A DNA stretch of 64,000 bases from the IMG/VR virus record IMGVR_UViG_3300013830_000002, positions 64,001-128,000 of that record. The stretch is one strand, 5' to 3'. The position numbers and the translations under genes were made by a program. Positions within the stretch are counted from its first letter, which is position 1; every line of letters begins with the position of its first letter. Below are positions 1,801 through 56,481 of this stretch, piece by piece. This DNA is from a virus (taxonomy: Duplodnaviria; Caudoviricetes). The notes beneath the pieces are model-generated. The model saw nothing but the letters and a program-made list of their open reading frames with translations, searched no databases and was not told the DNA's origin.

Positions 1801-4800
1801 TCAGCATTTCTTTAATATTAAAATTCTTCCAGACATTGACTGGTCAATCAATGTATCCTTTATCTGTTTAATCTGAGCTTCACTTGGTTCTCCTTCAAAA
1901 ATAAAGGACTTAATCATTGCAATGGTCTTGGCCATTGAAGGCATTTCAAACGGACTATTTTTCATATAATTCATTCGTCTTATTTCCTTCTGCTCTGGAG
2001 TTTCCTCTGTAGATTTAGTAGGAGGAAGTATTGCATAAGGAGAATATGAATTATCAGAATTTCTCTGATATACTATATAGGTCCAAACAGGGTCTTTTAC
2101 TTTAACAAAAGGCTCAGTATGAAATTTCATAGCATATTGTGAAATAAGTGGAGCTGCATTTATCTGGTAGTCAATTAGCTTGTAATCAGGTACAAAGTCA
2201 TAATCATAATCTTTTGTACCAACAAAATTGAAGTACTTGTTCAAAATGCTGGTTTGCCGTGAACAAGCTTTGAAAGCAGTAGTAAGTCTTTCACTTCCAT
2301 ACTGGTTTCTGTTGACAATAATATTATATAATTGCAGGACATCAGCTATAGTCATTGGGTGTTTATTGTCAGGGTAATCAATAAAGTTTTCTCCATTTCC
2401 AAATTCAGTACTCTCAAACCTTGCCATTCCAGTTAAGATTTCTCCATAGTCAACTTCTGATTGAGAAGTAATATTAGGATTCATCAAGTCAATATCTGTA
2501 GTGAGAAGTGGTTGATTTCCTATTTCTGTAAGAGTTAAATGTTTAACCAGTGGATTATTTTTATAATTGTCTCTTAGATACTGTAAGAAAGTAGTCTCAA
2601 CAAAATGTTTGAATCCTGCTATACCTTCCATAGTAGACAAATCATAGCTGTCAACCCCACCTGTAATCTCTGCAAATGAAGAGTCATATCCTACAGAATT
2701 CATGCCTTCAGGTAAAATAAACTAAGGAAGAGACTTACAGAATTCGTAGGAATTAAGTGCATCAACATACCTTATTACTCCCTGAAGTTGTTTATCACTC
2801 AGATAATTTTCATTCTGTGTAAGTTTGATAATCAAACGGCTCTTCATTGCTAAATTATTGGCTGTCACCAATAATTTCAGACAGTTCATAATCTGAGCAT
2901 AATGAGGAATCTGATAAACCATGTCGATAGCATTGACAGTACCCTTAAGTACATCAAGATAATCCTTTGCAATCTTCCTATAATTACTGTCATTCATCAT
3001 TTTAACAGGGTCAAAATTATTGATTATATCTGCTTCATTTGCAGCATCAAAAGCCCTTACTATCTTGTCTTCAGTTAAAGTAGGATTGTTTTCCTGCAGT
3101 CTTTCTACAAGATTCTGCCAAGCAGCAACAATTTTTGCCTGTTTCTTCTCATCATTAGAAGTTTTTGGATATAACTCTGATTTTTTGACCTCAAACAGAT
3201 TTTCCCTGTCAGATATTACCCTCTTTATGCTTCTTATTCGTTTGAGAATGTCCAATTCAGAAGTAGGCAATCCTTGATTTAGACCTAATACTGCTGAAGC
3301 AACAGTGGTCATTTCCTGAGAATAGTTATATATTTTCTGAAATTCATCAGCATCTGCAATCATGTCCTGTTCAGGCATTCCAAGTGCCTTATAGCTTTTG
3401 ACAACATCCTGAAGCTGCAAAGTCAAATCCCAGCAGTTTCTGATGTAATTGACTACCTCAGGGTCGTCATTCAAGGTACTGTCAAAATTCATAAGTTCTG
3501 AGTATAGATTAAATGTCTGATTATATACTTGAATATCTGGCCTTTTAGCTATAGCTTGAATAACACCACTCATAAGAGTATTCAAGTCAATATTGTTGAG
3601 TGCATCAGGGTCAGTCTCACTTCCGTTAAGAAGAGCAATCCTGACCTCCCTTTCAAGTTGGTCATTAGCTTTAATAAAATCAACAAGAGTGTTCCTTACA
3701 ACTTTAGATTTCTAAACTGGAGGATAATAATCCCCTGTTACAGGGTCTTCATATCCAGGATAACTTCCATGAATAAAGTTATTTGCATTAAGAATACCTT
3801 TAGACAATTTAATTGCCGTAGCAGCACTTACATAACCATTTTCCGTTTGGAACATATTTACATTAGACCTGCTGTCAATAAACTCTCCAATAGGAGAAGT
3901 CATAAAGGCAGCAATATCATCAATACTGTATCCTTGAACAATCAAGAATGCATACATTTTAGCATAATTGGTTCCTGCATTAAGTTTGGCAAGAATCAAT
4001 TCCTTAGCGTTCATTTATATTAGTAAATGTATATTTACCATACTTATATTTTCATATAAGATTAGACTATATCATAACTTCTGTTGAAGTTCCTTGTACT
4101 TCGGAAATTTTTCCTACTCTACTCGATTTTATTTCAGTCTTTCGATAGTCGTTGCTCCTTCTTCTTATTTATATTAAGAAGCTTGGGTCAGGGTTGTCCA
4201 ATTTTTAAACTTATTACTATATCTAAACAATTAATTTAGCCCTATAAATATTACTATTTATAGTTAGTATTTAAAACTTTAGGAATTTCCCTGAGTTCAC
4301 AAGGTTTTTTACTACGGACTCCGCTTATTTATATTTTAATTTATCTATGGTAATAATAGTGATTTAATCATCATAACCAAATTCTTTCAGCGCAATATTT
4401 TTCTTAAAAATTGTTAAAAACACTTTAATCCGTAGCGGCTGAAAGCATTTGAGAAATTGCCTGGTCAACATATTTGTAACCAGCCTCTTCAAGTGCTACT
4501 CCAAGTTTCTGAGTTAAAGCACTGTTAATTTGCTCATCAGTTAAATCAAGGTCAGGAAGTACTCGTGTAACACTTTCAATAGGAGCATTTTTTGCTCTGC
4601 CCTTTATTCTGTTCAGAGTTACCTGATACTTGAGGTATTCTATAGCTTTTGGATTTCCAGATTTTAGAATCTTAGTCCAGTAATAATAATCGTTAAACCA
4701 GAATTTTTCTGCATTTGCAAAAATACCAATATCCTTTTTACCTACCAAATTCTGGTATTGCATTACATATTTGGTAAAAGGATTAAGCATATTAAGATGA

Positions 4801-50725: not shown

Positions 50726-53700
50726 TCAATAAGCGGTTTCTGTACTATAAAGTAAGAACGACTTATAAGGATTAGTTACTGCAATAGATGCATAGCCCTG
50801 TGCAGTAATTGCACCACCTGCTACTAATGTAGCAACATCCCCGTCTTCAATTCCAACCCCTCGTAAGGTATTGAATATAAAGTCTTTACCCTTAAGAGTA
50901 AATAGGTTAATGGCAGGATTGCCATTAGTTTTACCTGCTGTTAAGTCGATGCACATAGCAAACGGCATTGGATATTCTCTTGTAAGAGTTCTATCAGCAG
51001 TAAAAACTATAGTATTTCCCAAATTTATGTTAATCTAAGTATTTCTACCTAGTTCAGACTATATCTTTATCTTTAAATTTAAAAACAAATCCTTTATGTG
51101 AGTGAATAATATTTCTGAGAACCCTATTTATCTAAGATACATTTAATTCAGGATGCTGTTTTTTACAGTCCTGAGCATTATCATACTCTCCTATTTTGTT
51201 TCCCTTTTTGTCATACATAACAATTTGTTTATAAGGAATTTTTAGAGGGCCACCAATATAAGGCTCAATATCAGAATCATTACCAGTGTATCTTCTCCAC
51301 TAATAGCCAGCTGCTAGACAGTGCTTCATAACTGCCTAATTAATAGTGCATACTTGCATAGCTAAATCAGCTTCTTCTATACTATTAAAAGTTCTTAAAA
51401 ATTTTCCACTTAAAGTATACTGTGCTACAGGAGTAATATTTCTATTTTTATATCCTGGAAATTTATTATTTCTAGACCAGATATAATCACAAGCGGATGA
51501 TGTTCTTCCTGCACAATTATTTTTTATAGCCTATTTAACACTTTCATAATTGTCGGCATTAATAGAATGAGCAGCTATTCCTATTGAAGGATAGGCAGAA
51601 ACAAACTTTCCTTCTTTTGTATACTGGTAAACTGTGTGCATATATTCAGGATTAACTCCTCCTTGACCTCCTACACTTGTATTATAGCACTATTTGCTTC
51701 TAAGTACTGTAGGAGTCACAAGCTCTGCTTCTAATTGATAGGCCTGTTTCTTTCCTTCTTCTGTGTGAGGAAATATCCTAAGTGTAGTACGCTTAAATTT
51801 ATCATATCCATATTTCCTAACAGCAGAATGAAATGCAAACTTTTTATTGGCATTACTTAATCTATATACCCCGCATCCTATATAACCATCAAACACATCT
51901 GGATTTGTTTCATGTACACCTATGTAGAATTTACCATTACATAAGTTTATTGTTATATAAACAATATATTTCAATTCCATAAGATAATTACCATTTCGAT
52001 TATATTAATAATCTATGCCCATAAAGGGACTTACTAGTCGTTGAACTTCACTCATACTTAAAAGCTAAGAGTTTTAGCTGCTGATTATCCAATCTCTATT
52101 ATTTTTCAGCATTATATTTAATTTCCATTAATATTTTAGCTAATAGAGCTCTAAGGAACTTCCAGCAATTAAATAATTTTTATTAAGCCACAGATTTCTC
52201 TGCGTTTCGCCAGAAATAAATTAGTTTAGCGAATTCATAAGCACTAAATGTGCTTCCAACTTTATAATATTTACCGTCTTGTTTTGAGTAAAGATAAGCA
52301 CCATCAGTCTTGAAGTCTGCAAGGTACTTAAACAGTACTCTGTTAAAGATTGCCCACATTTGTTCATTTGCCACAAAAACAAACTGGTTACCAGTAGGAG
52401 TATCAGCCTTCTGGACCATTTGAGAAATAACGGTCTGGAAAGTGTTGATAGTAATCTTACTAGCAACATATTTAGAAGCAAATCTTTCTATCTATGGAAT
52501 TAAGCCCTCCGAAATTGTTAATCTTCATATTACTACGAAGTTCAGACTATATTTTTAACTTGTATTGTTTTATCCTCTACAAGTTACTTCCTCTTTCCAC
52601 CAATTTAAATAGTGTACTCTACTCAGTTATAATTATTAGTTTTTCTCTAATAATTTCTTTTCGATAGTCGTTGAACCTTACTAACATTAGTATTGGCTGC
52701 TGATTGTCCTATAGTAGCTAAATAGGAGATTCCAGCAATTAAAGAAGTTTTATATTGGCAAGAGTTTATCCAACCAATAGGAATAGGTCTACCAGTCTGT
52801 CTATCAGAAAGTGTAGGCTTGCCGTCCCTGCCAATGTTACCTTTAGAAAGGAGCAACATTTGCTCACGAGCTTGCATGAAGTTATCAATAAGATTTTTCT
52901 TCATTGGGTCAAGCTTGTAAATGGTTTCTGTCAGACAACCTTGATTTTGACCTTGACCAATTTTAATGAGAGTATCCTCCATAAGAGCATACTTTGAACT
53001 GTATGTGTCATCACATCTGATGAGGGTCATACAGTTACGCATCTTTTCAACATTCATATTATTGCCTTATAGTTTCCTATAAGATTAGACTATATCATTA
53101 ATTTACTTTATATTTAAAAATAAATCCTTTACACTGTTGTTGTACTCCTTTTAATACCTTCTAAACTCCTCTTGTGTACTTATGTATAGTACAAGCCAAA
53201 GATGGACATTCTTCTATAAAAGTACCATCAGTTTTATAGACTAAAACTGGACGTTTAAAATACTTTAACTTTATAAGGATTCATTTTTTCTAATTTAGTT
53301 AATGAAAATTGGTATGATTTATAATTTTTATTTTTTCTGATTGACACTGTTATAGGATTAGTGCTGTTAATATTAAAAAACTTTTTAATTTCTTTTCCAT
53401 TATATAAAACAGTTAAAAATTTACCTTGTAAATCGTAAACATATAAAGGTTTATTCTTTATATGAATATGTTCAATAGGCTTATACTCTTCTACCAATTT
53501 GGAAGAAAAATAGTAGTTTTTTATTTTATATCCAGTAGACATAGCATTTCCTACACTCTAAGGAGTAACCCCAATACTAGTAGCTGCTTCCTTAATAGAA
53601 TTGTATGAAGCTACAAATTTGAGTGTAATTGCATCGTACTAAAAGCATTTTTGCTCTAGGCACGTAAATTCCTTAGTGTTAATACTTGTATCTTTAGACC

Positions 53701-56481
53701 AATAAAAATTTTTGCAGCGATTTTTATAATTAACTGCATTCCTGATAGCAGTATGTGATACACAATAAAAGTCAGCTGCTTCCTACATAGTATTCCAGGT
53801 TTTAATGTACTTACCACCAGTTGTAAATTGGTTTACAGGCAAGTATTTATAACCTGTCATACCACCTAGCTAAGCATTATATGTATCCTTCCGTTTAATA
53901 AAATTATAATCTACTAATCTTGATTCTTCTTTTAATGCTTCATCTAATGAGTCACATACTTTTAAAGTAATTCTTTTAAAATTTTTAACCCCATATTTTT
54001 TGACTGCATATTGTAAAGGAGATGAAGGATTCATATAACTACTTGGCATATTTACTTTTATTCCACATCCGAGATACTAATCAAAAACATCTGGATTTTC
54101 TGTCTTATGCTATCCAATATAAATTTTTCCATTAACTAAATTTTTTGTCAAATATATTATATATTTCATTATTTAGTAAATTAGCTTCCATTTCGATTAA
54201 TCTTTTAATCTACTCTCTCCCGAGATAGTCGTTGAACTTTTCTTGGTACTCCAGTCATAACTTTCAGTATAATCCAAGACTTAGCTGCTGATTACCATTT
54301 CACAGGTTTCCAGCAATTAAAAAGCTTGTGCTTGTAGCTTAAGCTACAAGGAGCAATGTTAGTTTACTCTGGTACTTAACGAACATTTTGTTAATCACTA
54401 TATTACTATAGTGTTCAGACTATATCTTAATTTATATAAAATAAATTCACTCTTTTTCAGCTATTACAGCTTACTCCGTAAAGGATAGTCGTTGAACATT
54501 CTAAAATAAAAATTTTAGCTTTGCTGCTGATTGTCCTAATTAGTAGCTGACTTAGGATTTCCAGCAATTTAAAGTGTTTTTATTATTGACTGAGGCAACG
54601 TTAAAAGTACCAATAAAATTTTAATATTTTCACCACAGTCATTAAGCTCCGGCTTGGCATTTCCTACCCATCGGGTAAGACCGCCAATATGGCAAGCATC
54701 CACATCAAGAACTGAGCTATAATCATCGTCAACAAGACGGACCATTACAGACCATCTATTGTCAGCTTTTCTTACAGGCGGGGCCACGACAAAGCATTGC
54801 TGGCCGGATTCCTCAATCTTGAAGATTTCATGAAGTTGGTAATAGTTCTCTGGGAATACCATTTCAATTTCAGAACCATCTGCACCATTCTCAACAGGAA
54901 CTTCTGCAAACGGAATTCTCTTGATTTGATTGGTTTCGATTTCCCCAATTTAATTGTTATCAACATGTTACCATGTTGTTCAGACTATATCATTTACTAT
55001 ACTTAAACACATAACCATTACATTCAGTAATCTAATTGATTACTTTGTTCATTTGTGTATGTGTTAATCCATACTTAACCCGGCACTCTTTAAAAGTATT
55101 AAATTCTTCAATCAAAGTGCCATTTTTGTCATAAACTTTTAGTGTGACAGGATTCAATTTTCTACTTGGCAATTCAGTAATTTGTTTTGTACTAATATAG
55201 AAATTCTTAAACCAACCGTCATTGTCATGTATGATTTTGTCCAATTTGGCAAACGAGAATACCTTTAGCTGTTTAAATATTTCTTTTCCTACAAATGTTC
55301 CGATAAATTTATATGGAATACTGTACAAAAAGAACTGACAGCTTTTTAATTGTACTCTTGGTTTTGGTTTAAATTCGTCTGTATTAATGTTTGACACATA
55401 ATGGTTGCATAGTAGTTGTTGGTTTCTGCAGGCATGACTGACTGCTTGTGGAGTACATCCTAAATATTGAGCACACTCTTTTCTTGTGCCAAATACAGCA
55501 ACCTGACTACCATCCTTTGTATAAACAAATGTTTTTTGTTTGCGATGGTTAATGTTAAAAATCTGTGGTTGTCTACTCCAGTAGAATCCAGCGTAAGTAA
55601 TACCGTCAGTAGAAGCTCTCTGTAACCTTATTAAGTTCAAACCCAGAGAATCAGCTGCCTCAACCGTACTGTTCCACGTTTTTATTAAATTACCATCGTA
55701 GTCAAATTGATTGATTGGTTTGGAATGCCAAGTTCTGTCTTGCTGGCCTTTAAAATATCCACCAAGACCTCCTACAGCTACATTATATACATGAGCTTGA
55801 CGAATAAACTATTCAGTCACAATACTCTCTTCAATGGCTGATGCCTCTTCAATAGTATCCACTATTTGAATAGTGTATCGAGTGAAAGCATTTGGCCCAT
55901 ACTTTTTAACTGCCTTTTGAAAAGGAGTTGTAGGCTGCATATATGTAGCAGGTTTTTGTGCATAGACTCCACAACCTAAATACCCGTCAAAAATTTCTGG
56001 GTCTTCGGTTTTATGGTAGCCTATATAAATTTTGTTCAGTCCATTCTTTTTGGACTTGTTGTTTACAGTTAAGTATATGATATATTTCATAGTAATCCAA
56101 TTTTTCACCATAAGGTTTAGAACGCATCTTAGTCGTTGAACATTACTCTGAACCAGAGTCGTGCTGCTGATTGTCTTGTAGTAGCATCAAGAGTTCCCAG
56201 CAATTTAAAGGATTTTTCACAGTAGCTTACACTACTGAGGAGCAGGAATTTTACTCATAGAATTCAGAGTCAATTGAAGTAAAGCTACCAAGCTTTTTCT
56301 TCTCCTGACCCATCCAAACATTACCAAGTAAGTCAGTTAATGCACTCAAAGTGTTTTGCGGATAAAGCTTAGCAAGAATACCGAGCTTATATGTTTTAGT
56401 ACCAAGGAACTTACCAAAATCCTCAACGGTACGTGTACCACCCATATTAGGGTTATTAGTTACAAAATTAGCTACTAACAT
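50726..56481 (-). CDS. Major capsid protein, 472 aa after removal of five group I introns (exons 56481-56253, 54945-54632, 54383-54366, 53054-52773, 52509-52228, 51019-50726)
   Basis: Exons sum to 1419 nt in one frame. Junctions rebuild FYE-W-EIETN, NDCG-FVKYQS-NVEKMRN, PIG-EGLIP[Q]IE and YEFA-GNTI, all crAss MCP-like motifs. Confidence 0.9.
51020..52227 (-). mobile_element. Group I intron 5 of MCP (1208 nt) with homing endonuclease
   Basis: Exon TTCGCT pairs with IGS GGCGAA, and P10 is ATTTCT/GGAAAT. CAACGACTA and GATATAGTC core elements present; ends in G. Confidence 0.9.
51054..51980 (-). CDS. GIY-YIG homing endonuclease with NUMOD1-like repeats (~308 aa; TAG=Gln)
   Basis: YIVYITINLCNGKFYIGVH...DGYIGCG. 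The C-terminus KDKDIV* is encoded by the intron core sequence AAAGATATAGTCTGA. Confidence 0.85.
52510..52772 (-). mobile_element. Group I intron 4 of MCP (263 nt, no ORF)
   Basis: Exon TATTGGT pairs with IGS GCCAATA. Core elements CAACGACTA and ATATAGTCTGAAC present; ends in G at 52510. Confidence 0.9.
53055..54365 (-). mobile_element. Group I intron 3 of MCP (1311 nt) with homing endonuclease
   Basis: Exon GAGT pairs with IGS GCTC, and P10 AACATT pairs with the next exon AATGTT. Core motifs present; ends in G. Confidence 0.9.
53255..54169 (-). CDS. GIY-YIG homing endonuclease (TAG=Gln), last NUMOD repeat frameshifted
   Basis: MKYIIYLTKNLVNGKIYIG[Q]HKTENPDVFD[Q]YLGCG, ending in TAA at 53255. 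A further repeat continues in another frame. Confidence 0.8.
54384..54631 (-). mobile_element. Group I intron 2 of MCP (248 nt, no ORF)
   Basis: Exon GACTGTGGT pairs with IGS GCCTCAGTC. Core elements CAACGACTA and AAGATATAGTCTGAAC present; ends in G at 54384. Confidence 0.9.
54946..56252 (-). mobile_element. Group I intron 1 of MCP (1307 nt) with homing endonuclease
   Basis: Splits a TGG codon (T|GG). IGS GCTC pairs with GAGT and P10 is ATTCC/GGAAAT. Core motifs present; ends in G. Confidence 0.9.
54990..56090 (-). CDS. GIY-YIG homing endonuclease with NUMOD1-like repeats (~366 aa; TAG=Gln)
   Basis: MKYIIYLTVNN...KIYIGYHKT...DGYLGCG. Fragments 55809.. and 55032.. share a frame, and the TGA overlaps the intron core ATGATATAGTC. 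Confidence 0.85.

Follow-up and report, generated by a model that had tools for sequence, protein, structure and literature searches.

The window analysed here is a 64,000-nucleotide (nt) stretch of a Caudoviricetes virus (IMG/VR record IMGVR_UViG_3300013830_000002, positions 64,001 to 128,000), a crAss-like gut phage with a genome of 166,778 bp (~167 kb) that is estimated to be 100% complete. On the minus strand of the window, from 56481 to 50726, lies a 5756-nt locus in which six exons, which sum to 1419 coding nt, alternate with five group I introns, which sum to 4337 nt (75.3% of the locus). We built the exon map from a listing of open reading frames (ORFs), Rfam matches, and tblastn with an uninterrupted homologue (Table 1). 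The initial annotation, made from the sequence letters, had described a major capsid gene with 1419 coding nt spread over 5756 nt, 75% of it intron, and the exon map reproduces every one of these figures. We conclude that the locus is very probably a single major capsid gene of a Zeta-like crAss phage that has been colonized by five related mobile group I introns, and that its transcript would be spliced and then translated with a UAG codon read as an amino acid.

Table 1. Exons, introns, and endonuclease reading frames of the capsid locus, in transcript order (window coordinates; aa, amino acids; L001, the uninterrupted homologue; HE1, HE3, and HE5, the endonuclease ORFs of introns 1, 3, and 5).
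Feature	Position	Strand	Description
Exon 1	56253-56481	minus	229 nt; aa 1-76 and first base of Trp77; ATG start; ends ...UAUGAGU; tblastn to L001 residues 1-75
Intron 1	54946-56252	minus	1307 nt; group I; carries HE1; guide G 56243; P1 5/6, P10 5/6
HE1	54990-56090	minus	366 aa, 2 TAG; GIY-YIG and NUMOD1; phrog_314 E = 2.5e-20; NUMOD1 32 bits; UGA stop in J8/7-P7' core motif
Exon 2	54632-54945	minus	314 nt; aa 77-181; 59% identity to L001 residues 77-180; ends ...UGUGGU
Intron 2	54384-54631	minus	248 nt; group I; no ORF; RF00028 71.2 bits; guide G 54596
Exon 3	54366-54383	minus	18-nt micro-exon encoding FVKYQS; flanked by the terminal G of intron 2 and P1 of intron 3
Intron 3	53055-54365	minus	1311 nt; group I; carries HE3; guide G 54354; P10 7/7
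HE3	53255-54169	minus	304 aa, 6 TAG; GIY-YIG and NUMOD1; phrog_314 (homing endonuclease) E = 1.5e-28
HE3 C-terminal DNA-binding module	53098-53253	minus	+1 frame relative to the HE3 ORF
Exon 4	52773-53054	minus	282 nt; aa 188-281; 49% identity to L001 residues 187-280; ends ...AUUGGU
Intron 4	52510-52772	minus	263 nt; group I; no ORF; RF00028 66 bits; guide G 52759; P1 6/6, P10 5/6
Exon 5	52228-52509	minus	282 nt; aa 282-375; tblastn to L001 residues 279-372; in-frame TAG 52494-52492
Intron 5	51020-52227	minus	1208 nt; group I; carries HE5; guide G 52211; P1 6/6, P10 7/7
HE5	51054-51980	minus	308 aa, 5 TAG; GIY-YIG and NUMOD1; phrog_314 E = 7e-24; NUMOD1 46.9 bits; stop inside P7' motif
Exon 6	50726-51019	minus	294 nt including TGA stop; aa 376-472; 45% identity to L001 residues 375-470

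The uninterrupted homologue is the capsid gene of GenBank MT835470 (L001; L numbers denote related loci), one of two GenBank gut-phage records that hold relatives. Its 473-aa ORF scores 52.2 bits against the Pfam Crass_capsid model (PF23898, cut-off 27); in PHROG, it matches the major head protein family phrog_11589. The initial annotation had staked its reading on contiguous alignment of the spliced product with capsid homologues: the 472-aa product obtained by joining the exons aligns with L001 without a gap at any junction, at 51% identity end to end, and it retains 77 of the 89 near-invariant positions (those with 98% or higher conservation across 105 full-length homologues). The genes flanking the locus are syntenic with those of L001, and no second capsid copy was found in the phage genome. 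Taken singly, the exons gave no capsid match in PHROG or Pfam, megablast of the locus against GenBank phages gave no match, and neither did phmmer of the capsid homologue against the PDB. We identify the predicted product as a Crassvirales major capsid protein, with the profile scores being those of the homologue L001.

The smallest exon was placed by the same comparison. The 18 nt between two ribozyme cores encode FVKYQS, which corresponds to YVKYQS in L001 (residues 181–186), exactly the residues that the large exons leave uncovered, and 4 of these 6 residues are invariant in 10 homologues. Micro-exons of 22 nt or 30 nt were rejected, as they give a stop or an insertion of 5–16 aa. The exons are spread over three reading frames, and the junction of exon 1 with intron 1 itself creates an in-frame TAA; we discarded an intein on the grounds of these frames, inserts full of stops, and the lack of a Hint match.

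A covariance search had been suggested as a check on the five introns, and the Rfam group I model (RF00028; gathering score 50 bits, E-values from a scan of 6.4 kb) gives matches in each of them, at different strengths. Matches above the cut-off were obtained for intron 2 (E = 4e-17), intron 4 (2e-15), and the 5' part of intron 3 (58.1 bits, 4e-13). In the ORF-bearing introns, both halves are matched with E = 1e-6 to 8e-3: intron 1 in a 5' half (56055–56261, 35.7 bits) and a 3' half (54961–55086, 23.6 bits), intron 5 in a 5' part (36.4 bits) and a 3' part (27.5 bits), and intron 3 additionally in a 3' part (29.2 bits). The core motifs of introns 1 and 5 align with those of introns 2 and 4, and all five introns share the core blocks AAUUGCUGG, CAAUCAGCAG, GUUCAACGACUA, and GAUAUAGUCU. 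Downstream of P9, each also has a 10–15-nt tail, which in four of them reads (A/U)UAACA...G; this tail is also seen in relatives' introns and in those of unrelated large phages. The shared core and 3' tail motif argue that the five introns are one family, probably of the phage IA type, given P7.1/P7.2-like hairpins between P7 and P3' that we read by eye.

The introns had been proposed to have an exon-terminal U, an intron-terminal G, and pairing to an internal guide sequence at every junction, and this is what we found at 5 of 5: all five exons upstream of introns end in U, all five introns end in G, and the guide G that pairs with the exon-final U, 10–36 nt into each intron, is the top-scoring among all candidate positions. 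The combined score of the guide helices P1 and P10 was 9–12 of 12 across the five introns, with 4–6 of 6 pairs in P1 and, at the chosen 3' site, 5–7 of 7 pairs in P10. In introns 1, 3, 4, and 5, the chosen 3' site gives the longest unbroken P10 run among nearby G positions. Exon 3, at 18 nt, is long enough to hold both the P10 partner of intron 2 (CGUU) and the P1 partner of intron 3 (CAGAGU). In all five introns, the Rfam models stop 10 nt or more before the mapped 3' end. We rejected these early ends, as well as the 5' site that Rfam gives intron 2 (following GGUACU), because they would disrupt both the frame and the colinear alignment with homologues.

Translation of the joined exons would require a single departure from the standard code. 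The sole in-frame TAG of the capsid exons is in exon 5, at the position where L001 has the Gln of IPQVERF, and a tRNA gene with a CUA anticodon is present at genome 158340–158415; the read-through of TAG that the initial annotation had called for in the capsid thus stands. The three endonuclease ORFs are likewise open only with TAG read through. Read onward from the upstream exon, the frame meets TAA or TGA after 0, 20, 8, 49, and 14 codons in introns 1–5, respectively.

Introns with and without an endonuclease were said to alternate, and they do: ORFs are present in introns 1, 3, and 5 only. As we read the Rfam alignments, all three ORFs begin in the P8 loop, downstream of P3', extend with their final codons into P8'/J8/7, and have their stop codon in or beside the P7' motif. 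Their description as GIY-YIG enzymes was upheld by the matches to phrog_314, by conserved residues, and by the predicted fold. Y6, Y17, G19, R66, E82, and N98 are invariant in an alignment of 12 endonucleases, and from the motif alignment, the Tyr, Tyr, Arg, Glu, and Asn are likely equivalents of I-TevI active-site residues. An AlphaFold2 model of the HE3 N-domain (predicted local distance difference test score 93.4) has the GIY-YIG alpha/beta fold, and its top Foldseek matches in the PDB were 1MK0/1LN0, the I-TevI catalytic domain (probability 1.00, TM 0.62–0.71), followed by the GIY-YIG domains of UvrC and Slx1. NUMOD1 scored above its cut-off in all three endonucleases (32–47 bits). Pfam GIY-YIG models (PF01541/PF19835) gave 17.9–23.5 bits, short of the gathering score (cut-offs 22.6–25), with no match for HE1; hmmsearch similarity to I-TevI was marginal (E = 0.15); and phmmer of HE3 against the PDB gave no match. 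We take the predicted enzymes for a divergent GIY-YIG subfamily, one that phrog_314 matches strongly. HE1, HE3, and HE5 are mutually 31–36% identical and are therefore old paralogues rather than recent copies.

The arrangement resembles the td intron of phage T4 and its endonuclease I-TevI, likewise a phage group I intron with a GIY-YIG endonuclease that has a separate C-terminal DNA-binding module. In the td intron, the endonuclease ORF sits in P6, whereas the ORFs in the window lie in the P8 loop and their products have NUMOD1 repeats; no zinc finger was detected. A fourth GIY-YIG relative lies outside the window (genome C1:158340–158800; 31% identity to HE3 over 116 aa) and adjoins the tRNA(CUA) gene.

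From these features, we propose the following pathway. One precursor transcript of ~5.8 kb would cover the whole locus, and each intron would fold such that its internal guide pairs with the last ~six exon bases, ending in a U·G pair. Two transesterifications per intron would follow, the first with exogenous G and the second at the terminal G, with P10 aligning the next exon. Five independent self-splicing events, two of them flanking the 18-nt exon, would yield the 1419-nt mRNA, whose lone UAG the tRNA(CUA) of the phage would decode as Gln. In co-infection, the I-TevI-like endonucleases would cut capsid alleles that lack the intron, and repair would copy the intron in, while the ORF-less introns 2 and 4, which lie 18–282 bp from their neighbors, would be carried along by co-conversion; for the homing and co-conversion steps, we draw on established knowledge of I-TevI-type homing. 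That introns 2 and 4 persist by this route only, carried by their endonuclease-bearing neighbors, is a further but unlikely possibility.

Several observations weigh against this account. Introns 1 and 5 match RF00028 only as two sub-threshold halves; the model cannot bridge an ORF of ~1 kb. HE3 is frameshifted +1 at UUU UAA (53255–53260), after ...KVKVF, relative to its one-frame 357-aa orthologue in L238, and one or more of the endonucleases may therefore be inactive; the split could mark a gene that recently became a pseudogene, or else a +1 slip on the run of four U before the stop, as in RF2. If TAG is decoded as Gln, the frame of exon 4 continues without a stop for 49 codons of intron 4, covering P3–P7 (52623–53066, minus strand), and ribosomes running into this intron could disturb the folding of its ribozyme. 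Finally, P10 of intron 2 starts with two mismatches, and the guide flank AACGUU of this intron (54589–54604) pairs at 7/7 positions with the beginning of exon 4 (53048–53054) compared to 5/7 with exon 3 (54377–54383), a comparison that is partly our own pairing count.

This last point bears on whether exon 3 is always included. If the guide of intron 2 aligned exon 4 in place of exon 3, exon 2 would be joined to exon 4 in frame, giving a second capsid isoform that lacks six residues; the core sequences shared by introns 2 and 3 would favor such skipping, and there are group I precedents in Twort and Bastillevirinae (PMC3073962, PMC11878797). The six residues are, however, among the most conserved of the family, and the case for skipping is one of pairing arithmetic. 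We consider partly alternative splicing of this kind, or a need for intron 3 to be removed first, unlikely. Either of these, if true, would make the locus a natural example, in a virion gene, of group I splicing that is alternative or ordered.

The same pairing of the intron 2 guide could also be taken to mean that 54631–53055 forms a composite unit, either a twintron or one long intron, in which the 18 nt are no exon and the gene has four interruptions; viewed at the protein level, only five fragments are visible, as in the published Zeta example discussed below. We regard this as very improbable, since the segment holds two complete tandem ribozyme cores (71 and 58 bits), the 18 nt encode exactly the missing conserved hexapeptide without an insertion or deletion, and the two sites are occupied independently in relatives, L238 having intron 3 alone and L003 having the intron-2 site alone. 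Least credible of all is a defective phage whose capsid gene is an assembly chimera or a pseudogene in decay and gives no functional protein: although three-quarters of the locus is insert and one endonuclease is frameshifted, this is the only capsid copy in an apparently complete genome, all exons are open and all junctions in frame, the near-invariant residues are largely kept, the flanking genes are syntenic with relatives, and relatives hold orthologous introns at the same sites.

We surveyed those relatives in IMG/VR with a search anchored on exon 4 (n = 66), because a full-length profile search, whose ranking favors contiguous matches, yielded almost only uninterrupted genes. No intron was found in 55 of the 66 capsid genes, one in 6, and two in 3; L249 has at least three, and L252 (IMGVR_UViG_3300045988_100068) has six gaps, such that the range is 0 to 6 if the gaps of L252 are counted. 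The capsid gene of L252 (6827–12539) aligns as seven colinear pieces; five of the six gaps have RF00028 matches, and two short introns enclose a 57-nt exon. The density of introns had been called extreme. Five is indeed at the upper end for near relatives, most of which were intron-free in this sample; uniqueness does not hold, given L252 and a similar gene of the Zeta group (PMC7886860). In addition, 54 short proteins resembling exon 4 were found.

Across the clade, the introns occupy ~15 insertion sites in IMG/VR, near aa 15, 28–34, 79–82, 171, 176, 181, 188, 199, 279–283, 321, 375, 414, 430, and 454. L003, L227, and L229 also have an intron at the intron-2 site; L238 has an orthologue of intron 3, 73.6% identical, at the corresponding site; and intron 5 has orthologues, 68–75% identical, at the same site in L129, L230, and L240. 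An intron of L006 (2805/4069) is 68–71% identical to intron 1 over ~340 nt and lies 8 nt downstream of the site in the window (after Val79 versus within Trp77); related introns therefore occupy neighboring but different positions. Presence and absence at a single site is illustrated by L005 and L006, whose capsid exon translations are identical: after aa 171, L005 has a 1301-nt endonuclease intron (3160–4460) and L006 a 261-nt intron without an ORF (4348–4608), while L004 has no intron at this site. This polymorphism is what mobile introns should show and reads as an apparent snapshot of intron gain and ORF loss.

High intron density has been described in Zeta-group crAss-like phages (Yutin et al. 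2021, Nat Commun, PMC7886860), including a capsid gene in OLRF01000054 that consists of five fragments and four intervening segments, three of them with intron-type endonuclease domains (PMC7886860, Fig. 7a). OLRF01000054 is also a crAss-like gut phage, from a group with genomes of 145–192 kb, and the window shows the same pattern at the protein level. Compared to that example, going by the published figure, one segment in the window consists of two tandem ribozymes around the 18-nt exon, giving five introns; the fragments lie in three frames rather than two; an in-frame TAG is present, whereas none is reported for the published gene (PMC7886860); and the junctions are mapped by P1 and P10. 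The capsid of L252, for which we found no published description, belongs to the same family as that of the window, with mostly different insertion sites. For cultured phages, up to three introns per gene are on record, and exon skipping is a documented risk in such genes (PMC3073962, PMC11878797). Orf142 of Staphylococcus phage Twort and the DNA polymerase and terminase genes of Bastillevirinae resemble our locus in that a single structural or core gene contains several group I introns that are alike; they differ in having at most three per gene, spliced experimentally, compared to five predicted from sequence in the window. A multi-intron capsid gene of the Zeta group is thus already published, and the window adds a further example and nothing new in kind. 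Relative to the published example, the analysis contributes the tandem introns around a micro-exon, junctions placed to the base, the endonuclease fold, and orthologues at the same sites in relatives.

On this reading, the most abundant virion protein of an abundant group of human-gut phages would need five splicing events and one stop read-through to be made. Because of these requirements, gene callers miss or fragment the capsid, which matters for annotation of the gut virome, and protein-level inspection undercounts the introns because the 18-nt exon is invisible to it. The locus also offers a compact system in which to ask how group I introns at close spacing avoid exon skipping, how introns without ORFs hitch-hike, and how TAG-rich endonucleases are tied to late, suppressor-dependent translation.

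A pattern scan for a group I 3' core followed by a 5' core within 72–102 nt returned 28 IMG/VR stretches (L163–L190) from approximately nine sequence families, many of them from phages of 200–380 kb, and the UAACA...G tail downstream of P9 is common to these introns. The capsid locus is therefore not peculiar in having tandem introns separated by a very short exon. Within the phage genome itself, at least six RF00028 matches in all lie outside the capsid gene (genome 10565, 14361, 21207, 30173, 46531, and 68043), among them one with a sub-threshold score of 42.9 bits on the minus strand of the window at 4043–4328, in the region of the giant RNA-polymerase-cassette genes.

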